Assembly (NCBI GenBank): GCA_963719425.1 | Contig: OY970382.1 | Location: forward strand, 7,888-71,887 | Source of the DNA: an uncultured bacterium | GTDB lineage: Bacteria; Patescibacteriota; Minisyncoccia; UBA6257; 2-01-FULL-56-20 | Reading direction: 5' to 3' | Length of the DNA stretch: 64,000 bases | Shown here: positions 2,524 through 39,109 of the stretch, piece by piece | How positions within the stretch are numbered: position 1 is the first letter of the stretch | Layout: every line of letters begins with the position of its first letter | Notes under the pieces: generated by a model | The model's database searches: none | Seen by the model: the letters and a program-made list of their open reading frames with translations, nothing else | What the model was told of the DNA's origin: nothing | Position numbers and translations under genes: made by a program

Positions 2524-2540
2524 TTTGGTACAATTAAATC

Positions 2541-3252: not shown

Positions 3253-3339
3253 GAGAAACAGTTAAAAAATAAGTGAGCCGTTGGACACGGAGGTATCCAA
3301 CGGCTCCACACAAAAATCCTACAACATTTCCCGAAATCG

Positions 3340-3990: not shown

Positions 3991-4126
3991 GTTCTTTTTC
4001 TCCTCTCGGTTTAGTAGGTTTCCGATCCTGTGGGGTATTTTGAGCAACAAGGACCTTATACATAATAGCATTTATAATAACATATGTCAAGCCGGAATAA
4101 AACAGGCCTGTTTTTGGCTAAAAGCC

Positions 4127-4159
4127 AAAAGTGTTCGAAAATTGTCCAGGCTCGTGCAC
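4127..4159 (+). promoter_or_regulatory. Conserved intergenic motif, copy 3 (AAAAGTGTTCGAAAATTGTCCAGGCTCGTGCAC)
   Basis: Motif alignment; lies about 20 nt upstream of a TATTAT-like -10 and 70 nt upstream of the dCMP deaminase gene. Confidence 0.55.
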
Positions 4160-4230
4160 GAAACAATCGGCTCGGTAATTATTATTAAACGCCACTTGTT
4201 CCTTTGCTGCCGAAGGGATATTCTGAGCGA

Positions 4231-4719
4231 ATGACATTCGATTGGAAAAAGCTGTTCATAGTCGCATATTCCAAGGCACAAGAGAGCACGAATCCATCTA
4301 CGCAAAACGGGGCTGTTTTGGTCAATGAATCTGGAGATATTGTTATGGTCGCAGCGAATACTTTTCCCGAAGGTATCAAGGAAATTCCGGAGCGGCGGGT
4401 CAAACCGTTGCGATATGTATTCAGCGTGCACGCCGAAAGAAATGCGATTTATCAAGCCGCGAAAGTTGGTGTCAAAACAAATGGTCTTACTATGGTTTGT
4501 TGTTGGGGTGCATGTACCGACTGCGCTCAAGCAATAATTCAATCGGGCATCAAACGGTTAGTCGTGCACAAGCAAGCCCTTGATCGATCTGGGAGTTGGC
4601 AGGAGAACATACGTTTAGCCTTTGATATGCTACGCGAAGCGGGCGTGGAAATTGTTGTTTATGACGGAAAAATTGGCATAGGAAAAATCCTGCGCGACAG
4701 AGCGCATTGGGAACCTTGA
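4231..4719 (+). CDS. dCMP/cytidine deaminase family protein (ComEB-like)
   Basis: Zinc-binding motifs HAERNAI and CWGACTDCAQAI (H-A-E ... C-x2-C). Alternative TTG start at 4204. Confidence 0.7.
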   Translation: MTFDWKKLFIVAYSKAQESTNPSTQNGAVLVNESGDIVMVAANTFPEGIKEIPERRVKPLRYVFSVHAERNAIYQAAKVGVKTNGLTMVCCWGACTDCAQAIIQSGIKRLVVHKQALDRSGSWQENIRLAFDMLREAGVEIVVYDGKIGIGKILRDRAHWEP

Positions 4720-4745
4720 TAATTCAATAGTTTGTGATAACCGTC

Positions 4746-4778
4746 AAAATCGCTCAAAGATCGTCCAGGTCGGCGCGC
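4746..4778 (+). promoter_or_regulatory. Conserved intergenic motif, copy 4 (AAAATCGCTCAAAGATCGTCCAGGTCGGCGCGC)
   Basis: Motif alignment; a TATACT -10-like element lies about 20 nt downstream; pilT starts at 4821. Confidence 0.55.
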
Positions 4779-4820
4779 GGCCGTTTCCCTTTGTGGTATA
4801 CTTTAGAAAAAGAACCACCC

Positions 4821-5897
4821 ATGGCGGAAGATTATAAGACGAGATTGAATGAGCTTTTGACGACGTGCGCGAAGCAGAGCGCTTCCGATTTGCACCTCGC
4901 GGTCGGACGGCGGCCGACATTACGTATTGACGGCACCCTTGTGCCGCTTCAGAAGGAGCCTATTATGACGCCCGAGGTTGCGGAAGGCATCATTTCGGAG
5001 CTTACCACCACGGAGCAGAGGGAGAGACTTATTACCCAGCGGCAGCTTGACCTCGCCTATAGTTTTGAGGACAAAGCGCGGTTCCGTGTGAATGTCTATT
5101 ACCAGCGCGGCTACCTCGCGGCAGCGCTACGCCTCGTGCCCGCGCGCATCAGGACGATTGAGGAATTGAACCTCCCGCCCCTTCTCCACGATTTCAGCAA
5201 ACTGTCGCAGGGATTCGTCCTCGCCGTAGGTCCCGCAGGACACGGGAAGTCATCAACGCTCGCGGCAGTCCTTGACGAAGTGAACCACACCCGGGCCGAC
5301 CACATCATTACCATTGAGGATCCGGTTGAATATCTTTTTACGCAGGATAAATGCATCGTTTCACAGCGCGAAATAGGAAGCGATGCAGTGAGCTTTCATA
5401 GCGCCCTGCGCACCGTTCTGCGGCAGGACCCGGACGTCATCATGATCGGCGAAATGCGCGACACTGTTTCCATTTCTACCGCAATGACGGCAGCGGAAAC
5501 AGGGCACCTGGTATTTTCCACGCTGCACACGAACTCCGCGTCGCAGACGATCGATCGCATTATTGATTCTTTTCCGGCTGAGCAGCAGGGGCAGGTGACC
5601 TCCCAGCTCGCGGCGACCTTGGTCGCGATTGTTTCTGAGCGTCTCTTGCCGAGAATCTCCGGTGGCCGCATCCCATCCATGGAAATTATGATTGTGAATC
5701 CGGCCATTCGGAACCTTATCCGCGAGCGGAAAACGTATCAGGTTGATCTCGTGATTGAGACTTCGTTGCAGGAGGGCATGGTGACGCTGAACCGCTCGCT
5801 TGTGAATCTCATAAAAAACAAGGAAGTAACGCTCGAGAATGCCGAACTCTATTCATTGAATCCGGCGGAACTTCGGATTCTCCTTGAACGGACATAA
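4821..5897 (+). CDS. pilT: Twitching-motility / pilus retraction ATPase
   Basis: Walker A GPAGHGKSST; PilT-type Asp and His boxes; ~358 aa hexameric secretion ATPase architecture. Start at MAEDYK. Confidence 0.85.
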   Translation: MAEDYKTRLNELLTTCAKQSASDLHLAVGRRPTLRIDGTLVPLQKEPIMTPEVAEGIISELTTTEQRERLITQRQLDLAYSFEDKARFRVNVYYQRGYLAAALRLVPARIRTIEELNLPPLLHDFSKLSQGFVLAVGPAGHGKSSTLAAVLDEVNHTRADHIITIEDPVEYLFTQDKCIVSQREIGSDAVSFHSALRTVLRQDPDVIMIGEMRDTVSISTAMTAAETGHLVFSTLHTNSASQTIDRIIDSFPAEQQGQVTSQLAATLVAIVSERLLPRISGGRIPSMEIMIVNPAIRNLIRERKTYQVDLVIETSLQEGMVTLNRSLVNLIKNKEVTLENAELYSLNPAELRILLERT

Positions 5898-5899
5898 TA

Positions 5900-7111
5900 A
5901 TGAGATTTAAGTATCAGGCCAAAACTAAGGAAGGGGAGATGCAGGTCGGGCTCGTAGAGGCAGGGAACCGCGATGGTGCCGTGAGTATTCTCACAAGCCA
6001 CGATCTCTTCATTTTGAGCGTGGAACCTGAAGAAAAGATGGGCTTTCTTGACCGAATCTCCTCATTTTTGAACCGCGTTCGCCGCAAGGATATGATCGTC
6101 TTCACGCGCCAACTCGCGACGCTCCTTGAGGCAAGGGTTCCTTTGAATAATGCGTTGAAGACCCTGCGCGACCAGACGGCGAATAGAATTCTCCAAGATG
6201 TGGTTACGCGGGTTTCTGAAGATATTGACGCAGGCCTTGCATTTTCCCAGGCGATGGAGCGGCAGGAGGGAGTATTCCCCGATTTCTACATCGAGATGGT
6301 ACGGGCTGCGGAGGTGACCGGAAATATGAACGAAGTTGTGGAATTCCTTGCTGATTATAGCGAGAAGGAAGGGACCCTCATGAGCAAAGTGGTCTCGGCC
6401 CTCATTTATCCCGCGATCGTGATAGCACTTTTTCTCGTGGTTGCTTTCATCCTCGTCACCTTTGTGTTTCCGTCTATCGGGACGGTGTTCTCCCAGAATG
6501 ATGTGCAACTGCCATGGTTTACGCAGGCGCTCCTCTCGGTGGGGAGTTTCATGGCGCAATGGTGGATTGTCGTTGTGGTCGCCGCGATCGTTCTCGGGGT
6601 GGCCCTCGTCGATTATTTTGAGACTGTCGAGGGGAAAGCGCTCCTGGACGATCTGAAGATCCGGTTACCCATCGCGAAGAAGATATATATTCCCGTCATC
6701 ATGGCGCGCTTCGGGAATTCGGCGGCGCTTCTCGTCCACGGCGGCATTCCCATCGCGCAGTCGCTGGAGATCATCAGCCGTATGGTAGGGAACACGCTCT
6801 ATGAGGATATTATCCACGACATCGCCGGCGATGTGCGCCAAGGAAAACTCCTTTCCGAGAGCATCGCGAGCCATCCAAGATTTTTTCCAACGATCGTTTC
6901 CCAAATGGTTGCGGTGGGCGAGACGACCGGGAAAACCGAGGAAATGTTTGCTCGGCTTGCGAGCATTTATATGCGGGAGACCGACCTGGTTTCAAATAAT
7001 CTCGTCGAGCTCATTCAACCCATCTTGATGGTGGGGATGGGCGTTATGGTCGGACTCCTTTTTGCCTCCATTCTTGTTCCTATCTATAGCCTGTCGGCGA
7101 ATATCCACTAG
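5900..7111 (+). CDS. pilC: Type IV pilus inner-membrane platform protein (PilC/GspF)
   Basis: Two GspF-like repeats and three TM segments; ATG lies 2 nt after the pilT stop. Confidence 0.85.
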   Translation: MRFKYQAKTKEGEMQVGLVEAGNRDGAVSILTSHDLFILSVEPEEKMGFLDRISSFLNRVRRKDMIVFTRQLATLLEARVPLNNALKTLRDQTANRILQDVVTRVSEDIDAGLAFSQAMERQEGVFPDFYIEMVRAAEVTGNMNEVVEFLADYSEKEGTLMSKVVSALIYPAIVIALFLVVAFILVTFVFPSIGTVFSQNDVQLPWFTQALLSVGSFMAQWWIVVVVAAIVLGVALVDYFETVEGKALLDDLKIRLPIAKKIYIPVIMARFGNSAALLVHGGIPIAQSLEIISRMVGNTLYEDIIHDIAGDVRQGKLLSESIASHPRFFPTIVSQMVAVGETTGKTEEMFARLASIYMRETDLVSNNLVELIQPILMVGMGVMVGLLFASILVPIYSLSANIH

Positions 7112-7147
7112 CCTTTTCCCCCAGATTAGTTATCCACAGGGAGCGGC

Positions 7148-7175
7148 TTGCCACAGGTTCCCATATTGTTATAAT
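7148..7175 (+). promoter_or_regulatory. Sigma70-like promoter TTGCCA-N16-TATAAT 7 nt upstream of the pilA ATG (leaderless-type)
   Basis: TTGCCA at 7148-7153 and TATAAT at 7170-7175; the ATG is at 7183. Confidence 0.5.
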
Positions 7176-7182
7176 TGTTGTA

Positions 7183-7746
7183 ATGGAACTGATGGTTGGC
7201 AGAGAAAGCAGAGAAAAACGAGGCTTTACCCTCATCGAAATCCTGGTCGTTGTCGCCATTATTGCGGTTTTGGCATCAGTGGTTTTGGTCGGTTTGGGCC
7301 CGACCCAACAGACGGCGCGCGATGCGCGCAGGCTTTCCGACATCCGGGAAGTGCAGAACGCCCTTGAGCTTTACTACTATAAGTGCGGTTACTATCCTGG
7401 CAGCGCGTCCGGCGGTACTTGCGCGGCGGGCAGTCCCGGCAGCGATTGGAACGGCTTAGCGGGTACACTTGGGGGCGCGAACATTGGCGTTAGTGCGAGT
7501 TCTATACCGTCTGACCCTAGCGCAAATCGGACGTATGGGTATGCGTATAACACGGGCAATACTACGTACGTGCTCGGCGCGGCGCTTGAGAACCCGAACA
7601 ACAGCGTACTCACGAGTTACAGTGCGCCATCTACCAGTGGGTATACTTGGGTGCCGAGCGGCGGCAGTGCGATCGGCCCGAATGCGTCCTGCAGCGGGCA
7701 GCCTACGAATAGCGGCAGCGGAGCTACCTATTGCATCTCGCTCTGA
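7183..7746 (+). CDS. pilA: Type IV major pilin (PilA-like)
   Basis: Prepilin leader MELMVGRESREKRG/FTLIEILVVVAIIAVLASVV; Gly/Ser/Thr-rich C-terminal half ending in C...C. Confidence 0.8.
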   Translation: MELMVGRESREKRGFTLIEILVVVAIIAVLASVVLVGLGPTQQTARDARRLSDIREVQNALELYYYKCGYYPGSASGGTCAAGSPGSDWNGLAGTLGGANIGVSASSIPSDPSANRTYGYAYNTGNTTYVLGAALENPNNSVLTSYSAPSTSGYTWVPSGGSAIGPNASCSGQPTNSGSGATYCISL

Positions 7747-7796
7747 TAGTTTTTTAGGGATGCGGTTTTGCATCGCATGCGTGGTAGAATAGCATC

Positions 7797-8633
7797 ATGC
7801 TTTCCGCCACCATCCTTTTCCTCTGCGGCCTCGCGGTCGGAAGTTTTATGAATGTTCTCGCCTTGCGGTATGACGGCGGGCATTTTTTATTTGACCCGAA
7901 GGTGATCGGCGGCCGTTCGCACTGCCCCCACTGCGGGCGCACCCTCGGCTGGTCCGAGCTCATCCCCATCGCAAGCTTTTTCGTTCAACGGGGGAAATGC
8001 AAACACTGCGGGGTGCCCATCGGGCTTCACTACCCGCTCGTGGAATTACTTTCGGGACTTGTTTTTGTATTTGTGCCGCTTTGGCTTGGGGGAGATTTCT
8101 TCCTTTCGGTGCTTTGGATCGCGGCATTGGAAGCATTACTCCTCGTCGCCTACATTGATATCCGCCTCCAAATCGTGCCGGACGAACTGAATATCATGCT
8201 CGCGATCGTCGCCATTTTTGCAGCCATTTTTTCCGTCGGGTATCTCGGCCCGGCGAACCATTCCTTTCTCGGCCCCTATGCGGCACCGTTCGGTTTGCAG
8301 AATAATTTTTGGGCGAGCCATCTTATCGGCGCTCTCTTTGGCGGAGCATTTTTCGGCGCGTTGGTTCTCATAACCCATAGGAAGGGCATGGGGGTAGGCG
8401 ATGTGAAGCTTGGCCTCCCACTCGGCTTGCTTTTTGGCTGGCCGGACATTCTTCTTCTCTATGGATCGGCCTTTGTCATCGGCGCGCTCGTTGGCGCGGT
8501 GCTGCTTCTCGAAAAGAAGAAAACCATGAAAAGCGCCCTGCCCTTCGCACCATTTCTCGCGCTTGGGGCTGCCTTTGTTTTTTTCTTCGGTGCCGCCGCT
8601 CTTGGATGGTATTTTCGTATAATAGGTCTATGA
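7797..8633 (+). CDS. pilD: Prepilin peptidase (A24 family)
   Basis: N-terminal tetracysteine CPHCGR...CKHCGV; multiple TM helices; conserved D residues typical of PilD. Confidence 0.85.
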   Translation: MLSATILFLCGLAVGSFMNVLALRYDGGHFLFDPKVIGGRSHCPHCGRTLGWSELIPIASFFVQRGKCKHCGVPIGLHYPLVELLSGLVFVFVPLWLGGDFFLSVLWIAALEALLLVAYIDIRLQIVPDELNIMLAIVAIFAAIFSVGYLGPANHSFLGPYAAPFGLQNNFWASHLIGALFGGAFFGALVLITHRKGMGVGDVKLGLPLGLLFGWPDILLLYGSAFVIGALVGAVLLLEKKKTMKSALPFAPFLALGAAFVFFFGAAALGWYFRIIGL

Positions 8634-9223
8634 AGGGCTTTACCCTCCTTGAACTCCTTATCGTCATTGCAATCTCCGCAATGCTCTCAGCGATCGCCAT
8701 AACCTATACGAGCATCGCGAGAAATCAGGTGGCGCTTTCGGTTGAAACCGCGAAGGCCTCCCAGTTTATTCTTCGCGCAAAAAGTCTTGCTATCGCAACT
8801 TATAACAGTGCCCCCGGCACCTGCGGATACGGGGCATCGTTCAACATCGCGAATAATACCTATTCGCTCTTCGCCTACACCCCAGATCCCTCCAAATACA
8901 ACGGCACCGTTTCGCCCTGTCCAAGCGTAGCGTCTACCACCGCGTTGGGGATTTCTTCCGGCGAGATGGGACAATCTTCACAGAGTTCTTGGAATGTACC
9001 GCTCGCGAACGGCGTTCGCATGGAGTCGGGAGGGAATGGCGACGACCTTGCGCTTGTGCTCTTCTCTCCGCCTGATCCCGCAGTTTTGATCAGCCGCGAC
9101 GGCCAAAACTTTCTTGACCCCGCTGCGACCCAGAACATAACCTCAAAGGTCTATCTTATCACTGCCGACGGTAGCGCATCTGCTACGATTTCTGTGAGTG
9201 CCGCAGGGCAGATCAACTTTTGA
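8630..9223 (+). CDS. Minor (pseudo)pilin with prepilin N-terminus MKG/FTLLELLIVIAISAML
   Basis: Class III signal; ATGA overlap with the pilD stop. Confidence 0.7.
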   Translation: MKGFTLLELLIVIAISAMLSAIAITYTSIARNQVALSVETAKASQFILRAKSLAIATYNSAPGTCGYGASFNIANNTYSLFAYTPDPSKYNGTVSPCPSVASTTALGISSGEMGQSSQSSWNVPLANGVRMESGGNGDDLALVLFSPPDPAVLISRDGQNFLDPAATQNITSKVYLITADGSASATISVSAAGQINF

Positions 9224-9228
9224 ATCAC

Positions 9229-9765
9229 ATGAAAGCCCGGAACCGCAACGGTCAGTCACTTGTTGAAGCGATGATTGCCCTCAGTGTGCTCGTGACGGGT
9301 TTTTTGGGCATTATGACGCTTCTCTCGCAATCGTTTTTCTTGAGCCGCACCACCTCTGACAGGCTCATCGCAACCTATCTGGCTTCTGAGGGGATTGAGC
9401 TTGCAAAGAACCTCATTGACCACGATGTGTATGCGGGAAACGGCTGGGGAGTGTGTTTCGCCGTCCCCGTAGGCGGAAGCGGGGATTACGAGGTTGATTA
9501 TGCGACATTGACGCAGGGCCAAAATTGTCCTCCCGCCGTCTATAGCGGCAGGTATCTCATATTTGACCAAACAGCCCATCTCTATGGCTATAATTTCGCG
9601 AGCACGAGCACGGATGACCTCGCGGTGACCGATTTCACGCGGGATATTCGGGTAGCCGTGCCGGCGGCCTCACAAGGGAACGAGATCGTGGTTACCTCCA
9701 TCGTCGGGTGGTCCAATGGGCAAAATATCATACTGGAGGACCACTTTTATAATTGGCGTCCATGA
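9229..9765 (+). CDS. Minor pilin, PilV-like (MKARNRNG/QSLVEAMIALSVLV)
   Basis: Glu at +5 after Gly; hydrophobic helix. Alternative TTG start at 9220. Confidence 0.6.
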   Translation: MKARNRNGQSLVEAMIALSVLVTGFLGIMTLLSQSFFLSRTTSDRLIATYLASEGIELAKNLIDHDVYAGNGWGVCFAVPVGGSGDYEVDYATLTQGQNCPPAVYSGRYLIFDQTAHLYGYNFASTSTDDLAVTDFTRDIRVAVPAASQGNEIVVTSIVGWSNGQNIILEDHFYNWRP

Positions 9766-10316
9766 AATCATTGCCTATGAAAAAAGGATTCACCCTAATG
9801 GAATTGTTGGTTGCCATCGGCTTATTTTCCGTCGTCGTCGCGATCGCGGTGGGTGGGTTTACGAATGCGCTCCGCACGCAGCGTGAGGTCGCGGCGCTCA
9901 TCGCCGCCCAATCAAACGCGGGTCTCGCCCTGGAGCAGATAGCGCGCGAAGTGAGAACCGGGTATTTTTTCTGCCACGACTCCTCCGGCGCGTCAACGTG
10001 CTCTTGTTCGCTCAACGGGTTTGCGCTGACTTGCTCCAATCTCAGCTTTGAAAATGCGTCGGGCGCGGCGGTGGGGTATTCTCTTGCGAATAATGCCCTT
10101 GCGAGGAGCGAAAACGGCAGTCCGGCGCAGCCCATTACGAGCGATAACGTCGCCGTTAGGTATTTGATCTTCACGCTGTTCGGGAACGCCGAAGGCAGTC
10201 AATGGAATCCGCGCATTACGATCTCAATCGGCGTCGCGCCAAACTCTGCCGATCCGGCGCTGCAAAGCGACGTTCTCAATCTCCAGACGACCGTGAGCGC
10301 CCGCGGAGTGTTATAA
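9753..10316 (+). CDS. Minor (pseudo)pilin (MKKG/FTLMELLVAIGLFSVVVAI)
   Basis: Class III signal peptide; overlaps the upstream gene by 13 nt. Confidence 0.7.
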   Translation: MASMKSLPMKKGFTLMELLVAIGLFSVVVAIAVGGFTNALRTQREVAALIAAQSNAGLALEQIAREVRTGYFFCHDSSGASTCSCSLNGFALTCSNLSFENASGAAVGYSLANNALARSENGSPAQPITSDNVAVRYLIFTLFGNAEGSQWNPRITISIGVAPNSADPALQSDVLNLQTTVSARGVL

Positions 10317-10324
10317 TCACTAGG

Positions 10325-10759
10325 ATGAGAATGAAAACAGGGAGTAAGAGGAGTGGGCAAGCGATGCTCCTCTCGGTCTTGGCGCTCGGAGGGGCGATTT
10401 TAGGCGCGACCACGATCGCGGGTTTTTTAATGCTCTACCAAATTAGAGCGACGACGGACTCGGAGAATTCGGCGAAGGCAATCTTTGCGGCGGATTCGGG
10501 CATCGAATGGGCGCTTTTCAGTTTTTATTGCGGGCAAACCGCGCGGTGCACGGTTCCTCCCCCGCTTCCTGGGAATCCGCCGGGCACCTTGGGGGATGGT
10601 GCAGTGGTTGACGTAACCTGCTACGACAGTTCCGGCGTTGCCACGACGACCTGTTATGCCACGACGACCGCAGCCTCGGCCATCGCGATGGGTACCTCAT
10701 TTGATGCGACGCGCGCCTTTTTCCTGGGCCTTGGAAACGCTACCGCGACAGCGCCGTAG
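10325..10759 (+). CDS. Pilin-like protein (PilX-like; SG/QAMLLSVLALGGAILGA)
   Basis: Prepilin-like N-terminus but without Glu at +5; lies in the pilin cluster. Confidence 0.4.
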   Translation: MRMKTGSKRSGQAMLLSVLALGGAILGATTIAGFLMLYQIRATTDSENSAKAIFAADSGIEWALFSFYCGQTARCTVPPPLPGNPPGTLGDGAVVDVTCYDSSGVATTTCYATTTAASAIAMGTSFDATRAFFLGLGNATATAP

Positions 10760-12892
<2,133 letters not shown>

Positions 12893-18440: not shown

Positions 18441-19253
18441 ATGAAACCAGAACAAATCCCGGGTCCCCGGGAGAAAACACCAGCCGTTCAGGGCGGAGAG
18501 AAAAGACCTGACCAGGAGCAGGTCATTGATGTCGGAGAACTGATGAAACAACCCGAGTATGCAAGGGCGGTAGCGGCTAGGAAACAGGAACAAAATTATA
18601 TCCCTCTGCGGGGCACCATGGAGATGTTGGGAGTGAACCCGGAGGATGCGCTAAAGAAGAATCAAGTTGAAGGACCCACATACCGTGAAATTGCCGGGCA
18701 GTACCTTGCGGCGGCTGCGGAAAGGGTTAGCAGTCTTAAGGGCAGGATTGGAGGTTTTATTAATAACGCGGGGCATAAGTTAGTGTCCTTCGGTTTGGAG
18801 ATGCAGGGGGGAACGTTGGGGGAAAGGCGTGAAAATCAGACCGGTAAAGAAACCGGAGAAAAACCGTCCACCAATGTCCGATTCTTCAGCAAAGCACAAA
18901 TTGATGTTGCGCTGGGGAGGACTAATCCTCAGCGCCCGGAGGTAGCAGCGGCTGGACAGCAGGGAGAACGGATGGGGGGACCAGCGGAGAAGGTGAGAGG
19001 AAGGTATGGCGAAGTAGTGGATGCCGGCATGGCCCAGTACGCTGCCCTTATGCAACGGGCGGACGGTGCGCAAACCGCGCTCCAAACGGCAGCTGAGTTA
19101 GCACGCCGAGGGCAAGAGCGAAAAGCGCGCGAAATGGGGAAGGCCGAGGCCCATAGAGAATATGGCAAACGACTGCTTGATATGATGATGGCTCGGGCTC
19201 GCCTTGCCGAGGTCAAGCTTCGGCTGCGGCAGCTGGAAGGAGCAGCTGCTTAA
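18441..19253 (+). CDS. Hypothetical protein (charged, coiled-coil-rich)
   Basis: 270-aa ORF downstream of a strong promoter; no recognisable motifs. Confidence 0.45.
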   Translation: MKPEQIPGPREKTPAVQGGEKRPDQEQVIDVGELMKQPEYARAVAARKQEQNYIPLRGTMEMLGVNPEDALKKNQVEGPTYREIAGQYLAAAAERVSSLKGRIGGFINNAGHKLVSFGLEMQGGTLGERRENQTGKETGEKPSTNVRFFSKAQIDVALGRTNPQRPEVAAAGQQGERMGGPAEKVRGRYGEVVDAGMAQYAALMQRADGAQTALQTAAELARRGQERKAREMGKAEAHREYGKRLLDMMMARARLAEVKLRLRQLEGAAA

Positions 19254-19271: not shown

Positions 19272-19622
19272 ATGAGTAAAGAAGAAATGGAAAATCTTAT
19301 CGGGGGAATGCCACTTGACGATGGCGAGAAAGCGGCCCTGGTGAGCGACCTCAATAGCGGTATGCCCGCGCAGAAGATTATTGAGAAAATCGAATTGCTC
19401 CTTGCGGCAAAAGAAAAGGCATTGGACGATGCGGATCCCGAAGCCGCCGCGGCGCACGTTGCGATTAAACGTGAGTACCAAGAAGAGATTCAGAAAGCGG
19501 CAGCGGAGTTTGATGGGAAAATGAAGCAGATCTGGCAGGAGGCCGATGCCGTTGCAAAAGACGTTTCCCGGCAGCTGGACGGTGTCCGCGCCGACGAGAT
19601 CAAAGAGGGAATTCAGGGGTAG
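19272..19622 (+). CDS. Hypothetical small acidic protein
   Basis: 116-aa ORF immediately downstream of the previous gene. Confidence 0.4.
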   Translation: MSKEEMENLIGGMPLDDGEKAALVSDLNSGMPAQKIIEKIELLLAAKEKALDDADPEAAAAHVAIKREYQEEIQKAAAEFDGKMKQIWQEADAVAKDVSRQLDGVRADEIKEGIQG

Positions 19623-19721
19623 CCCGCTAGTTCTTTTTTCGTTCTCGCCATCTTGTTTCCGAGGTGGAATTTTGTTGCTGTTCGTCGTCACCCCTGTTAA
19701 ACTTAATGAAATAGTTGCCTT

Positions 19722-20864
19722 ATGACTGCCGAAATCGTTATCACATCACCGGAAGAGAAATCCCTCCAGGCGGAGATTGAGAGGAGAAGCGACGCGGAAG
19801 GGGCACGCATGCTGCGGTTCATGCGGATGCCGGACCTTTCGCGCACGAAAGGGAGCCCGATTTGCGAAATTGTGCAGCGTATCGTGGCACTCCCGGATTT
19901 CAAGACATTCGACGTTGTGCAGGTGCCGGAGATTGTGCCCGCGCGGGAGAGTTTTGATCTTTTTAATTTTCCGCCCGACCATCCCGCCCGCAGCCGCTCC
20001 GACACGTATTACGTGAACAACGACTACATTTTGCGCACGCACACCACGATCATGTGGTATTACTGGCTCGGCCTTTCCAAGGTGAAAGAGAAAATGCAGC
20101 GTGGGGAAGCAGTGGGCGCCTTGTGCTACGGCAAGGTATATCGCAAGGACGAGATAGACCGTGAGCACATGAACATATTCCACCAGATGGACGGTTGGTA
20201 TCTTTGTCGCCGAGAGGAAAAAGAGATAGGCCTGGAAGACCTGAAAGCCGTTTTGGTAAAGATCGCGCAGGCAATTTACGGGCCGGACATCAAGTATCGT
20301 TTCAATAAAGATACGTTTCCCTACACGGATCCGAGCTTGGAGATGGAAATAGAAGTGGGGGGGCGCTGGGTGGAGGTCTTGGGCAGTGGCGTCGTACAGC
20401 CGAAGGTTTTGGACAACTTCGGCGTTGATTCTCGCGTTTGGAATGGCTGGGCGTTTGGCTTCGGCCTGGAGCGGCTTGCCATCTTGAGCATGCAGCTTCC
20501 CGACATCCGGCTCTTGTGGTCGCGGGACCTGCGCGTCACGCGCCAGCTCCGCCTTGGGAATGCTTATAAAGAGGTAAGTAAATTCCCTCCCGTCAGCCGC
20601 GATATTTCGTTCGTCGTGGGCGCGGGCTTCGTGCCCAATAATTATTTTGATGTTATCCGCGACATCGGTGGCGACCTTGTGGAAGAGGTGGCATTGCTTG
20701 ATAAGTATGAAAATCCGGAAAAATTCGGCAAAGGGAAAACAAGCTATACCTTCCGCGTGGTCTATCGCGGGAACGACAGGACGCTCACAAACGCGGAGGT
20801 GGACGTGATACATCACGCGCTTGAAGGAAAGACTGCCGACGAGTTCGGCGGAACGGTACGGTAG
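19722..20864 (+). CDS. pheS: Phenylalanine--tRNA ligase alpha-type catalytic subunit fused to a C-terminal FDX-ACB anticodon-binding domain
   Basis: Class II motifs (FPYTDPSLEMEI; motif 3 GWAFGFGLERLAILSM); ~95-aa C-terminal extension KFPPVSRDISFVV...YRGNDRTLTNAEVD resembling the PheT / mitochondrial PheRS FDX-ACB domain. Confidence 0.75.
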   Translation: MTAEIVITSPEEKSLQAEIERRSDAEGARMLRFMRMPDLSRTKGSPICEIVQRIVALPDFKTFDVVQVPEIVPARESFDLFNFPPDHPARSRSDTYYVNNDYILRTHTTIMWYYWLGLSKVKEKMQRGEAVGALCYGKVYRKDEIDREHMNIFHQMDGWYLCRREEKEIGLEDLKAVLVKIAQAIYGPDIKYRFNKDTFPYTDPSLEMEIEVGGRWVEVLGSGVVQPKVLDNFGVDSRVWNGWAFGFGLERLAILSMQLPDIRLLWSRDLRVTRQLRLGNAYKEVSKFPPVSRDISFVVGAGFVPNNYFDVIRDIGGDLVEEVALLDKYENPEKFGKGKTSYTFRVVYRGNDRTLTNAEVDVIHHALEGKTADEFGGTVR

Positions 20865-20886
20865 TATTTCCGTTATAGTTAAGGAG

Positions 20887-22344
20887 ATGGCAAAACTTCT
20901 CGCACCGAAAGAAGTTTCTGAAATCGCCCTCACGCTCGCAAAGGCGGGATTTGAGGCGTATCTTGTCGGTGGCTGCGTGCGGGACATGCTCTTGGGCCGC
21001 GAGCCTAAGGATTGGGATGTGGCGACGAACGCGCGGCCGGAGGAGATCCAGAAACTTTTTCCGGAGAGCGTGTACGAGAATTCGTTCGGCACAGTGGGCG
21101 TGAAAACCGAATCGGAGGATCCAAAGCTCGCGGTGATTGAAGTGACGACCTATCGGATTGAGGGGAGATATACGGATAAGCGGCATCCGGATGAGGTAAA
21201 GTTCGCGAAGACGATTCAGGAAGATTTGGCCCGCCGCGATTTTACGGTGAATGCGCTCGCGATGAATTTGAAAGGAGAAGTGTACGATCCATTCGGAGGG
21301 AAGAATGATTTGAAGAGCAGGATAATTCGCACGGTGGGGAGTCCGGAGGAGCGGTTCAATGAAGACGCGCTACGCCTCATGCGCGCGGTGCGCTTTGCGG
21401 TGGAATTGGATTTTGAGATCGAGATGAACACGCGCCGCGCAATTGAGAAGCAATCGCCTGAGCTTGAGATGATTGCGAAGGAACGCGTCCGCGACGAACT
21501 CGTGAAGATAATGGAGACGCCGCAGGCGGCAAAGGGGATCATTCTTTTGGAAGAACTCGGTTTGCTGCAGTATGTTTTGCCGGAACTGCGCGAGGGGCTG
21601 GGCGTCGGGCAGAATCTGCACCATATCTATACGGTATTTGAGCATAGCGTCCGATCGCTGGATTACGCCGCGAAGCAGGATTATCCGCTCGTGATCCGGA
21701 TGGCGGCGCTCTTGCACGATGTCGGTAAACCGCGCGCGAAACAGGGCGAGGGCCGCAATGCTACTTTCTATCAGCACGAATTCATCAGTGCGAAAATGAC
21801 CGCAAAGGCGCTGGACCGCCTGCGGTTCTCAAAGGAATTTATAGAAGAGGTGACGCACCTTGTTCGTTACCACATGTTCTATTACAACGTGGGGGAGGTC
21901 TCCGAGCGGGGGGTGCGCAGGTTTCTTGCGCGCGTGGGGCCGGAAACCGTGCCAGACCTCTTCAAGGTGCGCGAGGCCGACCGCATTGGCTCCGGCGCGC
22001 CAAAGGCCACGCCATACAAGAATCGCCACCTGATGTTCATGATTGAAAAAGTGAAGAATGACCCGGTTTCGCCGAAGATGCTCAAAGTGAACGGCGATGA
22101 CGTGATGGAGATATTGCGTATCCCGCCGGGCCACCGCGTTGGGTGGGTGCTCGCCATATTGCTTGAAGAGGCGCTGGACGATCCTGAAAAGAACATTAAA
22201 GAAAACTTGACAGTGCGCGTCACGGAGCTGGGGAAACTCTCCGACGCGGAGTTAAAAAAGCTTGCCGAGAAAGCCCGCACTACGAAAGACGAATTTGAGG
22301 AAGGGCTGGAAGAAGAAATAAAAAAGAAGTATTTTGTAAAGTAA
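20887..22344 (+). CDS. cca: CCA-adding tRNA nucleotidyltransferase with HD domain
   Basis: Head motif GGCVRDMLLGREPKDWDVAT; HD motif HDVGK. Start at MAKLLAP, preceded by AAGGAG. Confidence 0.8.
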   Translation: MAKLLAPKEVSEIALTLAKAGFEAYLVGGCVRDMLLGREPKDWDVATNARPEEIQKLFPESVYENSFGTVGVKTESEDPKLAVIEVTTYRIEGRYTDKRHPDEVKFAKTIQEDLARRDFTVNALAMNLKGEVYDPFGGKNDLKSRIIRTVGSPEERFNEDALRLMRAVRFAVELDFEIEMNTRRAIEKQSPELEMIAKERVRDELVKIMETPQAAKGIILLEELGLLQYVLPELREGLGVGQNLHHIYTVFEHSVRSLDYAAKQDYPLVIRMAALLHDVGKPRAKQGEGRNATFYQHEFISAKMTAKALDRLRFSKEFIEEVTHLVRYHMFYYNVGEVSERGVRRFLARVGPETVPDLFKVREADRIGSGAPKATPYKNRHLMFMIEKVKNDPVSPKMLKVNGDDVMEILRIPPGHRVGWVLAILLEEALDDPEKNIKENLTVRVTELGKLSDAELKKLAEKARTTKDEFEEGLEEEIKKKYFVK

Positions 22345-23512: not shown

Positions 23513-24279
23513 ATTCGTGCAAACTTCGTAATTTCACAGAAGATTCATCAGTGATTGGTTTGTAACAACCAGTTGCTGGGAGAATCTCTCCGAATTGTAG
23601 AGTCGGGGAAGGAATAGTAGAAGCTCTGCATCATGTTTTTTGCCATCGCATTTTGGCAAATCCAATTTCTTACGATCGGCAGAGCAAAAAGTCAGCATTG
23701 GGATGGTTGGCATTTCCGTCGCAAGACGGATCTCAATAAGGGCGAATGGTGGATGCCTTGACTAGAAAAGGCGATGAAGGACGTGGCGTAGCGACGATAC
23801 GCCTCGGGGAGGTGCGTAGCAACCTGTGATCCGGGGATGTCCGAATGGGGAAACCTAATTACGTAAACCGTAATTGTTTCGGCGCAAGCCGATTCGCGTA
23901 CCTGGCGAAGTAAAACATTTCAGTAGCCAGAGGAACAGAGAACAAATCAGTTTATTCCCTTAGTATCGGCGAGAGAAAAGGGAAGGGCCCAAACTAAGGT
24001 TCTGATTTTTTCGGAATCTTGGGGTAATAAGAGAAAGACGCTGTTTTGCCGGTCGCCGAGCTTCCGTATAATCGGGACTTCGGCGATTGGTGAAATAAGG
24101 AGGAGTCAAAAAATCGTTGGTTAGCCAAAGCCGGCTGGAAAGCCGGGGCCAAAGCGGGTGATAGCCCCGTAGGCGAAAACTTACGATCTCCTTAGTTTTT
24201 CAACTTGAGTACTTCGGGGTAAATAAGTCCCGAAGGAATTTGCCTGTACTATCAGGCAAGGCTAAATACTTTTCTAGAT

Positions 24280-24316
<37 letters not shown>

Positions 24317-25100
24317 CAGGCCGGCGAGGCCGTTGAAATAGAACCTGAAACCATTTGTCTACAAGGAATTGAAGCTCCAAGTGCGGATGCAGCAATGCGT
24401 TCGCGCGGGGCGACAATGTGCCTATTGAAGAATGAGCCAACGACTTATCTTGTGTTGCTTGTCTAAACGCGCATAGCGTGCAGGCATAGCGAAAGCGAGT
24501 CTTAATAGGGCGTACATCCCACTCAATTTATTGGGTGGGATCGCAGCACAAGGTAGACCCGAAGCCAGATGAGCTTGCCTTGGCCAGGGTGAACCTCGGA
24601 GAAATCCGAGGGGAGGCCCGAACTGGTGAGTTGTTCAAAACTCTCGGATGAGCTGAGGTAAGGAGTGAAAAGCTAATCGAATTTGGTAATAGCTGGTTCT
24701 CTCCGAAATAGTTTTAGGACTAGCGGTGCGGAAAATCTTGCGGGGGTAGAGCACTGGATGATCTGTAAAGGCCGAAAGGCCGACAGATCAATCAAACTCC
24801 GAATACCGCAGGCGGATCCCGCACTAGTCAGACTGCGGGGGCTAAGCTCCGTGGTCGCGAGGGGAAGAGCCCAGACCGTTATCTAAGGTCCCCAAATCCA
24901 TGCTAAGTGTGAAAGGTAGTCATCACCCATAGACAGATAGGAGGTTGGCTTAGAGGTAGCCATCCTTTAAAGAGTGTGTAACAACTCACTATTCGACGGG
25001 TGGTGGCGCCGAAAATGTACCGGGGCTAAGCATGGTACCGAAGATACGGATTCGCTGACTTCATTGAGGAAAAATTTGTTCTTTGATTTGCGGCTTTGTG

Positions 25101-25173
25101 TGACGCGTAGCTCAGTTGGTAGAGCATCCGACTCTTAATCGGAAGGTCGCGGGTTCGAACCCCGTCGCGTCCA
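25101..25173 (+). tRNA. tRNA-Lys (CTT) embedded in the 23S IVS
   Basis: D-arm GCTCAGTTGGTAGAGC; anticodon arm TCCGA-CTCTTAA-TCGGA; T-loop TTCGAAC; acceptor has a T1:C72 mismatch; CCA not encoded. Confidence 0.6.
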
Positions 25174-25210
25174 CCCACCGTCTTTGATGGTGGAGAGAAA
25201 GCTCATGTGT

Positions 25211-25355
25211 CGGAGCGTAGCACAAGGGTAGTGCGCCTAGATGATCTTAAGTCTCCGGACCGTCAAAAGGATTTATGAATGACCTTTTGGCCCGCCGGCA
25301 GCGCGAGGTCTGTGCAACTAGGAGGTTGCAGGTTCAAGTCCTGTCGCTCCGACCA
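25211..25355 (+). tRNA. tRNA-Ile (GAT)-like gene interrupted by a ~70-nt insertion in the anticodon loop
   Basis: Acceptor CGGAGCG/CGCTCCG plus A73 and CCA; D-arm GCACAAGGGTAGTGC; anticodon stem CCTAG (25236-40) pairs with CTAGG (25318-22); loop ends ATGAT...AA would reconstitute ATGATAA; T-arm GCAGG-TTCAAGT-CCTGT. Confidence 0.4.
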
Positions 25356-26116
25356 AAAGTTTTGAGCGAGGCGTGTCGACACTATACTGTCGCGCGCCTC
25401 GCCTCCTCAATGAAGTCAGTGAGTGGTAGGAGAGCATTCGTACTGCAGTGAAGCCCGACCCGCGAGGGCGAGTGGAGCGATACGAAGAGAAAATGTTGGC
25501 ATGAGTAACCACAATCCCAATGAGAAATTGGAACCCCGAAAATCCAAGGTTTCCGTGGCACTGGCAATCAACCACGGGTTAGGCGATCCTAAGGCAATGG
25601 CGAAAGCCGCAGCTGATGGCATGCTGGTTAATATTCCAGCCCTCCTTTGTGATTATCCGTCGTGTGCGAAGGAAATAGGTGCGTATGCCTTATTGGTTTG
25701 GTATCGCTGGTCCGAAGTTCAACAAGGATCGGCGGAAGGTGAGGAATTTACCTCATCAACACGCATGAAGAGCCTTCCAAGAAAAGCGCGGCGGTTACGT
25801 TGCAGAGGATCCGTACCGTAAACCGACACAGGTGGATAGGGCGAGAAGCCCAAGGGGAACGAGTGATTTGCCTCTAAGGAACTCGGCAAAAAAGCGGCCG
25901 TACGTTTGCTATATGGCCTGATCTTCCTTAACCGGAAGATCCGCAGCGAAAGTTTCTCTGGCGACTGTTTACCAAAAACACAGCTCCCTGCTAACTCGCA
26001 AGAGGATGTATAGGGGGTGACGCCTGACCGATGCGAGAAGGTCAAGGTTGGGAGTGCCGTGCCGCAAGGTGCGGGACCCACTGACTCAAGCCCTCGTCAA
26101 TGTCAGCGATAACTAT

Positions 26117-26832
26117 AGACATAACGATTGTAGTTATAAAATCTGGCTATATGCTGGAAACTCTGTGTATCTGACATTACGGTATTTAATGAAAATTTTA
26201 TCCAAATTTAATTTTCATGTGGTACCGTGAAAATATGATCAGTGCAGACAATCAGCAGGAAAGGCTTTGTGGCATTGGTTGGTATCTTGCCGGCTTCGTT
26301 GATGGAGAGGGAAGTTTTAATACTTCTCTCCGAAAAGGAAATGGGCACCGCCTCGGATGGCAGGTGCAATTAACCTTCAATGTAGCCCAAAGGGATATCA
26401 GCAACCTGGAATTGTTAAAACAATATCTAGGATGCGGACGATTACAATATCGTAAAGATGGAGTACATTACTTCGTCGTGAGCGATTACCGTTCGATTAT
26501 TGATCGCGTAATACCGTTCTTTGAGAAATTCACGTTTTTCTCCGCTTCCAAGAAGAAGAATTTTTCTCTATTCAAGCAAATTGCATTTCTGATGGGTCAA
26601 GGAAAACATCTTGATCCGGCGGGATTGCAAGAAATTATTGCAATTAGGGAATATTTGAACGAGGGAAGAGGAAGGACGCGGAAATATAACAAAGACGATA
26701 TCACGATCGACCACAAAGAATCCTCAGAGACTATACGCCGGAGTTCATCAATGGTGATGGACAAGATATAGTCCGATCTCATGGGCGACCATGAGGATCC
26801 CGCTTAAAAACGAGCGAGTGATAACGTAAAAG
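26117..26832 (+). mobile_element. Group I intron at the 23S L1917-equivalent site, carrying a LAGLIDADG homing endonuclease gene
   Basis: 5' exon ends AACTAT(U); intron ends in G; the flanking exons AACTAT|AATCGTTCTAAGGT align to E. coli AACUAU|AACGGUCCUAAGGU. Confidence 0.6.
26235..26771 (+). CDS. LAGLIDADG homing endonuclease (single-motif, I-CreI/I-CeuI-like)
   Basis: Motif LAGFVDGEGSF; ~180 aa; lies inside the rRNA intron. Alternative start at 26217. Confidence 0.8.
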   Translation: MISADNQQERLCGIGWYLAGFVDGEGSFNTSLRKGNGHRLGWQVQLTFNVAQRDISNLELLKQYLGCGRLQYRKDGVHYFVVSDYRSIIDRVIPFFEKFTFFSASKKKNFSLFKQIAFLMGQGKHLDPAGLQEIIAIREYLNEGRGRTRKYNKDDITIDHKESSETIRRSSSMVMDKI

Positions 26833-26846
26833 AATCGTTCTAAGGT

Positions 26847-27083
26847 GGAATTGGTACTGCCTTAGTAAAACCTAACTATATGCTGGAACACCCGCGCATA
26901 TCAGAGTACCGAAAGGTGACAATCTCTGATCGAAGCGGACAATCAGCAGGAAACTTCACGGGAAGGATCCTCAGAGACTACACGTTAGGATCGCCGCAAG
27001 GCGATAAGATATAGTCCGAACTGCATAACGATATGCAGAGCCAAGCAGAAATGTTTTGGCCAACAAAAGTTGTAACACGTTCG
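26847..27083 (+). mobile_element. Short ORF-less group I intron at the L1931-equivalent site; a paralogue of the L1917 intron with the endonuclease gene deleted
   Basis: 5' exon ends TAAGGT(U); intron ends in G before AGCGCAATTCC (E. coli AGCGAAAUUCC). Shares blocks CTATATGCTGGAA, GACAATCAGCAGGAAA, ATCCTCAGAGACTAYACG and AGATATAGTCCGA with intron 1 in the same order. Confidence 0.5.
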
Positions 27084-27780
27084 AGCGCAATTCCTTTTCG
27101 GGTAAGTTCCGAAGCGCACGAAAGGCGTAACGACTGGAGAACTGTCTCGGAGGCAAGCTCGGTGAAAATGCGATTCCCGTGAAGACGCGGGATACCTGCA
27201 GCGGGACGAAAAGACCCCGGAAGCTTTACTGCAGCTTGGTATTGTCTTTAGGATCTTGATGCGTAGCGTAGTGGTGAGGATTTGAAGCCGCGCTCTCGGG
27301 TGCGGTGGATCCGACAATGAAACAGCCATCTTTAAGATTTTAAAGACTAACTGATGTGGAAGTGCGCAAGCATAAACCATATCAAGACAGTGCTTGGTAG
27401 GCAGTTTAAATGGGGCGTTTTCCTCCAAAAGAGTAACGGAGGAGTTTATTAAGGTCGGCTTAGCCCGGATGGAAATCGGGCAGGACGTGCAAACGCAAAA
27501 GCCGGCTTGACTGCGAGACCTACAAGTCGAGCAGGTGCGAAAGCAGAAGTTAGTGACCCGACGGCTATGTTCATGCGTGTTTTACTACGTGCATGAATTC
27601 TTGATAGAAAGGCCGGAGACACCGGATAAAAGCTACTCCGGGGATAACAGGCTGGTGAAGTCCGAGAGTTCCTATCGACGACTTCGCTCGGCACCTCGAT
27701 GTCGGCTCGCGACAGCGCCCGGGTGGAGAAGCTCGGAAGCGTTTGGCTGTTCGCCAATTAAAGTCGCACGTGAGCTGGGT

Positions 27781-28102
27781 GAGTGAACAACACTTCAAAT
27801 GAGCCCAGCAATCCTTTACACGAGGCTCGATTGTGTCCCAATCGAGAGAAAACAAAAAAGGAAAATAAATTGACTCATAACGGCGAAGTCCTCAGAAAGG
27901 ATAATGCCGTGGGAAGGTTGCGGTTTTTTTCCAGGCGCTCTTTTTGCGCCAAGAGAATCGTGAACCCCCGTAACGACTTGATCGTTTATGCGATCGGAGC
28001 GAAAAGATGGGAAGATCGTCTTCTCGCTAAAACGTCAGTCCTTGCGATTGGAATAGCAAGGAAAGGAATAGTCTAGTGCTCTTAGCAATAAGAGGAACAT
28101 TG
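27781..28102 (+). mobile_element. ORF-less group I intron at the L2593-equivalent (I-CreI target) site of 23S
   Basis: 5' exon ends GAGCTGGGT(U); intron ends in G; 3' exon resumes TCAGACCGTCGTGAGACAGG (E. coli UUAGAACGUCGUGAGACAG). Confidence 0.55.
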
Positions 28103-28134
<32 letters not shown>

Positions 28135-28252
28135 TGCTGCAGGCGTTTACACTTGAGGGGAGTTGGCATTAGTACGAGAGGACTTTGCTGAACCTACCTC
28201 TGGTCTACCGGCTTTGGTACCAACTGAACTGCCGGGTAGCTATGTAGGGAAG

Positions 28253-28286
<34 letters not shown>

Positions 28287-28508
28287 ACCCCAAGATTAGG
28301 TGTGTGTGATTTCGTGGAAGACTACCACGTTGATAGGCTCCAGGTGTAAGGCCCGCAAGGGTTTCAGCCGAGGAGTACTAATAATCCCGCCAACCATCCC
28401 AATGCTGACTTTGTTGTGTTCGTTTCGCCGTCAAAACTCTGAAGCGAACACTCTCTGCTAACAAAAAGGAGTGAGTGCGCTATAACTTATAGCGCGCGAA
28501 ACGACCTT

Positions 28509-32368: not shown

Positions 32369-39109
<6,741 letters not shown>

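Follow-up and report, generated by a model that had tools for sequence, protein, structure and literature searches.

A Single-Chain Phenylalanyl-tRNA Synthetase-Like Gene Upstream of cca in a Patescibacteria Genome: Architecture, Relatives, and Probable Housekeeping Role

The gene considered here lies in a 64-kb stretch of contig OY970382.1 (assembly GCA_963719425.1), referred to below as the window, from the genome of an uncultured bacterium of the Patescibacteriota. It is an intact open reading frame (ORF), whose product joins the class II catalytic core of PheS, the alpha chain of phenylalanyl-tRNA synthetase (PheRS), to a C-terminal ferredoxin-fold anticodon-binding (FDX-ACB) domain resembling domain B8 of PheT, the beta chain (Table 1). 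To our knowledge, every bacterial PheRS described is an (alpha-beta)2 heterotetramer, with the one-chain form regarded as an organellar feature. The domains, relatives, and gene neighborhoods of this PheRS-like protein bear on whether it is the housekeeping PheRS of its host or an accessory enzyme.

Domain Architecture of the PheRS-Like Protein

The assignment of the C-terminal domain is far beyond chance. The Pfam model for FDX-ACB (PF03147) matches this region with an E value of 3.5e-20 and a score of 72.7 bits, where the gathering cut-off is 31.1 bits, and the match covers model positions 1–94 of 94. The C-terminal 100 residues also align to positions 698–798 of the 798-position model for bacterial PheT (TIGR00472), residues 284–379 align to the C-terminal domains of solved PheT beta chains, and the FDX-ACB domains of relatives align to E. 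coli PheT residues 696–794. The preceding catalytic core contains HPAR at residues 87–90, LRTHTT at residues 104–109, motif 2 (GKVYRKD...FHQMDG) at residues 137–158, the pocket segment FPYTDPS at residues 199–205, and motif 3 (GWAFGFGLERL) at residues 242–252. A linker of ~10 residues (276–285), which follows a PDIRLLW segment, connects the core to the FDX-ACB domain. The Pfam search gave no match to the PheS N-terminal domain (PF02912) in this protein, and the B3/B4 editing domain is absent from the single chain.

An earlier annotation of the window, made from its sequence alone (the original prediction), had proposed a PheS core with a C-terminal FDX-ACB domain, and this architecture is confirmed by PF01409, by full-length PF03147, and by NCBIfam hidden Markov models (HMMs). 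The HMM check that it suggested for FDX-ACB and tRNA-synt_2d returned a match to each, the C-terminal extension included. The strings on which it relied were likewise found where it had placed them: the motif 3 string GWAFGFGLERLAILSM at residues 242–257 (nt 20445–20492), the extension string KFPPVSRDISFVV at residues 287–299 (nt 20580–20618), and DRTLTNAEVD at residues 352–361.

Structure, Active Site, and Predicted Mechanism

The solved structure closest in sequence is human mitochondrial PheRS (FARS2), which aligns over both modules with an E value of 1e-60; bacterial PheS chains match in sequence over the core only, with E values of 1e-39 or weaker. An AlphaFold2 model of the PheRS-like protein built on 38 family members reached a mean predicted local distance difference test (pLDDT) score of 90.9 and a predicted TM-score (pTM) of 0.85. 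When this model was searched with Foldseek, the top six hits were closed-state FARS2 entries (5MGH, 3CMQ, and others), with E values from 1e-34 to 4e-33. The superpositions on closed FARS2 extended over ~390 aligned columns, with query-normalized TM-scores (TMq) of 0.75–0.77, target-normalized TM-scores (TMt) of 0.71–0.72, and root-mean-square deviations of 3.3–4.1 Å. TMq fell to 0.57 against open, tRNA-bound FARS2 (3TUP) and to ~0.54 against bacterial PheS, in the latter case over the core only. The comparison with human FARS2 that had been recommended at the outset thus yielded a full-length fold match of the AlphaFold2 model, with a TM-score of about 0.75.

To compare active-site positions, the PheRS-like protein was aligned with its relatives, with PheS of E. 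coli, and with a fragment of FARS2. Residues R141, H149, F153, H154, Q155, D157, F199, P200, T202, A244, and R251 are invariant in the 38 family members, and HPAR is also present and invariant across them. R141 is the motif 2 arginine, R251 is the motif 3 arginine, and A244 is the alanine equivalent to E. coli A294; the roles of these positions are presumably those familiar from the PheRS of Thermus thermophilus and E. coli. As judged from this alignment, the catalytic residues of PheRS and most of the phenylalanine pocket are retained.

If the domains act as their counterparts do, the class II core would bind phenylalanine and ATP and form phenylalanyl-adenylate, and the FDX-ACB domain, the equivalent of canonical domain B8 of the beta chain, would read the GAA anticodon of tRNA-Phe. 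As in human mitochondrial PheRS, the enzyme may rest in a closed state in which the FDX-ACB domain packs against the core, and a hinge swing would open it for tRNA. The protein would act as a monomer and be specific for phenylalanine. Because there is no B3/B4 editing domain, mischarged Tyr-tRNA-Phe and meta-Tyr-tRNA-Phe would not be cleared in cis.

Family Placement and Phylogeny

Three NCBIfam models are relevant to the placement of the protein: NF051887, which describes the PheS-related mystery ligase SrmL and has a cut-off of 300 bits; TIGR00469 (pheS_mito), with a cut-off of 258.35 bits; and TIGR00468 (PheS), with a cut-off of 237.45 bits. The nominal top match is to NF051887, at 248.9 bits and thus below its cut-off. 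TIGR00469 is almost level with it at 248.1 bits, again under the cut-off, and the score on the canonical PheS model, 170.1 bits, also falls short of its threshold. True SrmL proteins score 376–441 bits on NF051887. Proteins so named by NCBI occur in Kocuria, Arthrobacter, Microbacterium, Kitasatospora, and Kibdelosporangium, and SrmL extends to Patescibacteria, Giovannonibacteria among them.

An active-site signature for SrmL was derived in this analysis from two true members rather than from a published definition. In these, HPAR and the first pocket phenylalanine are lost (HPYT), and the GCG region (E[AC]G) and motif 3 (GLA[SL]G) are altered, whereas the window protein has HPAR, FPYT, GSG, and GWAFG. 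Two contigs, L092 and L093, each carry a true SrmL gene (404 bits) and, ~6.5 kb away, a 380-codon gene of the window type. The product of the latter shares 64% identity with the window protein; its scores are 244.9 bits on the SrmL model and 240.8 bits on pheS_mito, and the two co-resident proteins are 32% identical to each other. Their presence on one contig identifies them as distinct, co-resident paralogues. In L092 the SrmL gene adjoins a convergent gene for a class II tRNA-synt_2 protein (Table 1), and in L097 and L098 SrmL adjoins a class I LysRS gene and two radical-SAM genes.

A neighbor-joining tree was computed from 234 catalytic-core columns with 60 bootstraps. It recovered the window-type clade and the SrmL clade at 100% each, and within the former the cca-type sublineage to which the window belongs at 90%. 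The window-type clade joined an Oligoflexia group at 95%, and these joined a Gracilibacteria sequence at 97%. A mitochondrial/giant-virus group, supported at 98%, excluded the window-type clade, and SrmL was placed as sister of the window group at only 40%. Although all single-chain forms seem to share one origin in this tree, such an origin is not established by it, as it includes only two canonical PheS sequences. From these sequence comparisons, the window protein is a member of a distinct bacterial clade, apart from both the mitochondrial/giant-virus clade and SrmL. The description of the protein as mitochondrial-type in the original prediction therefore stands for architecture, fold, and best solved homologue (FARS2) and fails for descent.

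The nearest relative from outside the Candidate Phyla Radiation (CPR), P0124, comes from an Oligoflexia metagenome-assembled genome (MAG), where its gene has a metabolic context. Contigs L100 and L101 contain a sister-group single-chain PheRS-like gene of 456 codons with 13 in-frame TGA codons in a locus of 32.5% GC. The database translation puts tryptophan at these positions, which align with glycine in homologues; this points to genetic code 25, and hence to an assignment to Gracilibacteria/Absconditabacteria. A 252-kb contig (L099) encodes a 360-residue single-chain PheRS that scores 331 bits on pheS_mito, above the cut-off; this contig looks like a giant virus, given its mostly unannotated ORFs and its ankyrin repeats, papain-like peptidase, thymidine kinase, and MC1. 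Proteins of ~350 residues above the pheS_mito cut-off had been considered as evidence of further bacteria with a single-chain enzyme, and this idea was dropped because the one inspected sits on that giant-virus-like contig.

Distribution and Conservation

In a search of 5.8 billion proteins, the best 120 matches all had both domains, at 66–100% identity, and those among them with organism names were all from Patescibacteria; their labels read "hypothetical protein" at NCBI and "PheRS alpha chain" at the Joint Genome Institute (JGI). Clustering at 50% leaves essentially a single full-length representative of the family, and the next relatives are at most 47% identical. Strict peptide patterns identified at least 380 carriers among GTDB species representatives, in the groups Liptonbacteria, Yanofskybacteria, Giovannonibacteria, Kaiserbacteria, Paceibacteria, and Minisyncoccia. 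The closest of these carriers is a closed chromosome of 898,885 bp (OY970175.1), whose protein is 91% identical. A CPR origin of the window, suggested earlier from its sequence, fits these results, in that the relatives are all Patescibacteria/Parcubacteria and the 23S rRNA gene of the window has an intron and insertions.

The gene is single-copy at every locus and is typically found among genes for tRNA-Met, tRNA-Asp, and tRNA-Pro, with aminoacyl-tRNA synthetase genes, gatCAB, and cca also nearby; no tRNA-Phe gene lies within 10 kb of it in 60 loci. Across syntenic loci, median identity is 65% for the PheRS-like protein, 66% for GatA, 69% for LigA, 69% for CCA, and 55% for MurD. The notion that the gene is extraordinarily conserved was rejected on this comparison, which indicates that it is conserved like its housekeeping neighbors and not more.

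A PheT-B2-Like Partner in Sister Lineages

In 6 of 85 related loci, a small upstream ORF matches E. coli PheT residues ~36–150, the B2 oligonucleotide-binding (OB) fold, at 34–41% identity by tblastn, and Pfam calls it tRNA_bind (PF01588). Five of these ORFs lie directly upstream of the PheRS-like gene and one (L072) lies ~700 bp upstream; the loci are L040, L072, L085, and L036, along with L077 and L079, in which the module is fused to the PheRS-like protein. In the first four, identity to this part of PheT is 38–41%. Additional B2-like loci are L087, L088, and L090 (Table 1). The stand-alone B2-like genes upstream of a single-chain PheRS encode 134–156 residues, and the fused form reaches 178 bits on TIGR00472, over positions 44–168.

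The stand-alone tRNA_bind family is large and found in Patescibacteria, where JGI labels it "PheRS beta chain"; it gave 2,519 matches, of which the best 120 are all single-domain proteins of 123–173 residues. On three independent long contigs, one of them from Doudnabacteria, the tRNA_bind gene is always directly upstream of a 375–379-residue core plus FDX-ACB gene, with gyrB close downstream. In being single-domain proteins of ~140 residues, these partners are similar to the stand-alone tRNA-binding OB-fold proteins of PF01588, which we take to be the Trbp111/CsaA/EMAP-like class, but they differ from that class in being tied to a single-chain PheRS gene, upstream or fused, and in being closest to PheT B2.

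A B2-like gene or fusion together with the core and B8 means that one sublineage has a two-gene or fused "mini-PheRS" consisting of the alpha core, B2, and B8. In these sister lineages the B2-like OB fold would supply a tRNA-binding module, encoded in its own gene upstream or fused to the N-terminus of the chain. The cca-type sublineage of the window has, locally, only the core and B8, and no tRNA_bind gene is present in the 64-kb window. The overall pattern suggests a dismantled PheRS, of which only the core, B8, and sometimes B2 have been kept.

Housekeeping PheRS or Accessory Enzyme

The reading favored here, with a probability of roughly 0.65, is that the PheRS-like protein is a functional, housekeeping, and probably the sole PheRS of this genome. 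That it is a functional PheRS is more probable still. The reading entails that canonical PheST would be absent from the rest of the 888-kb genome, and the indirect evidence favors replacement of the canonical enzyme. A Pfam scan of the window, covering the largest ORFs of a size expected for CPR PheT, revealed neither pheT nor a second pheS, and tblastn queries with its core, with its FDX-ACB domain, and with E. coli PheT and PheS detected only the PheRS-like gene there, so that the absence of an adjoining pheT noted in the original prediction holds. In addition, E. coli PheT residues 150–690 gave no tblastn match, even at E < 10, in the window and ~90 carrier loci, which span ±10 kb each and total ~1.4 Mb.

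Several observations weigh against this reading. A pheT gene at a random position in 0.8-Mb genomes would be expected to give ~1.7 matches in the flanks examined, so that finding none has a probability of ~0.18, and many of the flank loci share synteny, which weakens the result further. The pheS_mito score of the window protein, 248.1 bits, is just under the TIGR00469 cut-off, which close relatives straddle (P0121 passes at 264.3 bits; L092_380 and L087 score 240.8 and 228.5 bits). Relative to canonical and mitochondrial PheRS, the family has three conservative pocket changes (FPFT to FPYT, HTS to HTT, and FHQxEG to FHQMDG), two of which, the tyrosine of FPYT and the aspartate of FHQMDG, are common to SrmL. 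These changes are compatible with phenylalanine activation and could tune specificity; in one operon-type member, FHQIGG replaces FHQMDG. No clear Shine-Dalgarno sequence precedes ATG 19722 in the interval inspected (19700–19724). Accessory single-chain PheS-like ligases exist elsewhere, namely SrmL in Actinomycetota and Patescibacteria and the Oligoflexia relative, and Gracilibacteria proteomics tables list "pheT" proteins, without lengths. Canonical pheST occurs in a Parcubacteria genome, MAG PMX_810_sub (PMC9600506, Table S3), and PheRS-beta has been documented in other CPR bacteria (PMC5370408); the loss is thus not CPR-wide.

A rival scenario, raised in the original prediction, is that canonical pheS-pheT lies elsewhere and the single chain is an accessory paralogue, a second PheRS-like ligase serving as a back-up or stress-resistant enzyme or providing aminoacyl-tRNA for non-ribosomal use. 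This scenario is realistic, though on balance unlikely. In its favor, only 64 kb of the 888-kb genome was inspected, at least one Parcubacteria genome and other CPR bacteria have the canonical genes, the Gracilibacteria tables name pheT, and related single-chain proteins are accessory elsewhere (SrmL in cultured Actinomycetota; P0124, with its metabolic context). The hosts of SrmL and P0124, including Actinomycetota, presumably have canonical pheST. Against it stand the pheT-free flanks, the PheRS-like pocket, and the conservation, at housekeeping level, of a gene that is single-copy and set among translation genes in at least 380 species. In their genomes of ~0.8 Mb, a strongly conserved second PheRS-like enzyme with a dedicated B2 would be unexpected beside a full PheST. 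Giovannonibacteria already hold SrmL as an extra PheS-like ligase on the same contig, and "pheT" in an annotation table can be a B2-only protein of 140 residues, as the JGI labels show. An accessory role is also disfavored by the single Parcubacteria genome in which canonical pheST is known. PMX_810_sub (Paceibacterales, 90.7% complete) has adjacent pheT and pheS genes, with a PheT composed of B3/4, CLM, B5, and FDX-ACB without tRNA_bind and a PheS with PF02912 (PMC9600506). Its complete gene table lists PF01409 once, PF03147 once, and PF01588 not at all (PMC9600506), which means that it lacks a window-type gene; the complementarity expected under replacement is thus seen in one genome.

Two other explanations are much less probable. 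That the protein is an SrmL-type mystery ligase activating something other than phenylalanine is improbable, although NF051887 is its nominal top NCBIfam match and it shares two pocket residues with SrmL: its score lies below the cut-off and the range of true members, SrmL forms a separate, fully supported clade, the window protein keeps HPAR, the first pocket phenylalanine, and the GCG-region and motif 3 features that are lost or altered in SrmL, and both types occur on one contig as distinct genes. Still more doubtful is that the gene was recently acquired from a eukaryote, mitochondrion, or giant virus, or that it is an assembly contaminant or a decaying relic. The identity of the best solved homologue, human FARS2, and the presence of a related single-chain gene on a giant-virus-like contig would be in keeping with such an origin, yet the mitochondrial/giant-virus clade is separate, the window clade joins other bacterial sequences at 95–97%, the gene sits in conserved CPR synteny on contigs of 300–900 kb, and its ORF is intact and under evident constraint.

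We give about an even chance to a broader scenario. A large part of Parcubacteria, and possibly Gracilibacteria and Doudnabacteria, would have dropped the (alpha-beta)2 PheRS for an editing-free chain of core and B8, in some cases with B2, and one-chain PheRS would have originated in bacteria and comprise at least three old clades, the CPR type, SrmL, and the mitochondrial/giant-virus type.

Comparison with Known Systems and Significance

The mitochondrial single-chain enzymes (FARS2, yeast MSF1; TIGR00469) have the same two-module chain, a PheS core followed by FDX-ACB, and likewise do not have the N-terminal coiled-coil of the alpha chain or an editing domain. They are 31–32% identical to the window protein, match its full-length fold in the closed state, and share with it the linker motif PDIRLxW...R...Q and the FDX-ACB elements RDISF and YR. 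The window protein differs from them in lacking an insertion that follows motif 2, in having its own insertion of ~13 residues before motif 2 and the FPYT, HTT, and FHQMDG segments, and in being a bacterial protein of a separate clade that misses the TIGR00469 cut-off, although P0121 passes it. We know of no description of a B2 tRNA_bind partner or fusion, such as that of its relatives, for the mitochondrial enzyme. SrmL (NF051887) shares the layout of a PheS core with an FDX-ACB-like domain, is of similar length, and is also bacterial and present in Patescibacteria. Canonical PheRS (TIGR00468 and TIGR00472) has a homologous catalytic core, the solved bacterial PheS chains being ~29–33% identical to the window protein, and its PheT domains B8 and B2 are homologous to the FDX-ACB domain of the window protein and to the sister-lineage partner, respectively. 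Unlike that enzyme, the window protein is one chain rather than two, without the PheS N-terminal domain or B1, B3/B4, B5, and B6/7, and no pheT lies in the window or within ±10 kb in ~90 related loci.

A full-text literature search found no paper describing a single-chain PheRS in CPR bacteria or defining SrmL. The architecture is visible to databases, being seen by Pfam and partly captured by TIGR00469 and NF051887. The mitochondrial-type architecture and fold are known; the window protein departs from them in its separate bacterial clade, in missing both family cut-offs, in its own pocket substitutions, and in the B2 partner or fusion of sister lineages.

If the favored reading is correct, these bacteria would provide a second, independent natural test of a minimal PheRS, composed of the core and B8 with B2 optional. 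They would also be cells without cis-editing of Tyr-tRNA-Phe and meta-Tyr-tRNA-Phe, with consequences for fidelity in ultra-small symbionts. Marker sets that expect pheS and pheT (TIGR00468 and TIGR00472, both of which we take to be in the GTDB marker set) would systematically miss them in these lineages, while automated annotation mislabels the parts as "hypothetical protein" (NCBI) or as "alpha chain" and "beta chain" (JGI). Furthermore, the clade would supply bacterial outgroups for the origin of mitochondrial PheRS and bear directly on the source of that enzyme. The comparison also clarifies SrmL as a distinct paralogue able to coexist with the window-type enzyme.

Locus Organization and Other Features of the Window

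The gene following the PheRS-like gene is cca, as the original prediction had it; the identification is confirmed by the PolyA_pol, PolyA_pol_RNAbd, and HD domains of its product. Its start is most likely ATG 20887, which gives a protein of the same length as in relatives, rather than the overlapping TTG 20821. This ATG lies 22 nt past the stop codon of the PheRS-like gene, and because the gap is short and terminator-free, the two genes are probably co-transcribed, in which case two tRNA 3'-end functions would be expressed together. The order of the two genes is kept in L001–L005 and many further loci. The terminator-like hairpin upstream suggests that the PheRS-like gene probably opens a new transcription unit. 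A TGTTAAACT stretch ~20 nt upstream of its ATG resembles an extended -10 element, and a purine-rich AAGGAG abuts the cca ATG without a spacer (20881–20889). The translation initiation signals of both genes look atypical. No T-box or other leader RNA upstream of the PheRS-like gene was matched in Rfam at the gathering threshold.

Table 1. Coordinates of the single-chain PheRS-like gene, its neighbors, and other features in the window and in related contigs.
Feature	Sequence	Position	Strand	Remarks
Type IV pilus cluster	Window	141–10760	+	
Upstream ORF, 270 aa	Window	18441–19253	+	Marginal DprA_N match (22.5 bits); no convincing family
Upstream ORF, 116 aa	Window	19272–19622	+	No convincing family; 61% conserved in the closest relative, L001
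Terminator-like hairpin, then T-rich tail	Window	19648–19667	+	Consensus scan only; between the 116-aa ORF (ends 19622) and the PheRS-like gene
Single-chain PheRS-like gene	Window	19722–20864	+	380 aa; ATG start, TAG stop; PheS catalytic core and C-terminal FDX-ACB (B8-like)
Class II catalytic core	Window	19854–20546	+	aa 45–275; PF01409 (tRNA-synt_2d), E 7.6e-56
FDX-ACB domain (ferredoxin-fold anticodon-binding, PheT-B8-like)	Window	20577–20861	+	aa 286–380; PF03147
cca (CCA-adding tRNA nucleotidyltransferase)	Window	20887–22344	+	485 aa; Pfam PolyA_pol, PolyA_pol_RNAbd, HD; NCBIfam
23S rRNA gene	Window	23728–28401	+	4,674 nt
tRNA-Lys(CUU)-like element	Window	25101–25175		In 23S insertion
LAGLIDADG homing-endonuclease ORF	Window	26217–26771		184 aa
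Group I intron (RF00028)	Window	26796–27038	+	Inside 23S rRNA
Fused compact rpoB-rpoC	Window	32369–39109	+	2,246-aa ORF; Rpb2_1 to Rpb2_7 at aa 25–1047, Rpb1_1 to Rpb1_5 at aa 1059–2170
tRNA_bind gene	L040	310–735		141 aa; ends 20 nt before the PheRS-like gene
In-frame fusion	L077	9611–11134		507 aa; tRNA_bind, core, and FDX-ACB
In-frame fusion	L079			As in L077
Further B2-like locus	L087	10001–11580		
Further B2-like locus	L088			
Further B2-like locus	L090			
True SrmL gene	L092	10001–11116	+	404 bits; Giovannonibacteria-type contig
Class II tRNA-synt_2 gene (Asp/Asn/Lys-type)	L092	11227–12675	-	482 aa; adjoins SrmL, convergent
Window-type PheRS gene	L092	17551–18693	-	~6.5 kb from SrmL
Single-chain PheRS	L099	10001–11083		360 aa
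Sister-group single-chain PheRS-like gene	L100	9463–10833		456 aa
Sister-group single-chain PheRS-like gene	L101	154–1524		456 aa

Elsewhere, the window contains genes for ThrRS, SerRS, GatA, GatB, LepA, LigA, and MurD, a type IV pilus cluster, and a 23S–5S rRNA region. The 23S rRNA gene is extended relative to its 2,925-nt model. One insertion, of ~325 nt between model positions 756 and 1631, holds a tRNA-Lys(CUU)-like element that scores 67.9 bits on the Rfam tRNA model and is also called by ARAGORN; an embedded tRNA could serve as a processing signal that fragments the rRNA. The group I intron of the same gene lies just downstream of the LAGLIDADG homing-endonuclease ORF, which is also on the plus strand, and such introns are typical of CPR rRNA genes. 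The genes rpoB and rpoC form a compact fusion in a single ORF; fusions of this pair are known in Helicobacter and Wolbachia. The pilus cluster, whose ORFs were scanned up to position 8606, encodes ATPases of the PilB-like and PilT-like kinds, a platform protein resembling PilC, and a prepilin peptidase, together with ORFs that have an N-terminal methylation motif. Pili are common in CPR episymbionts.

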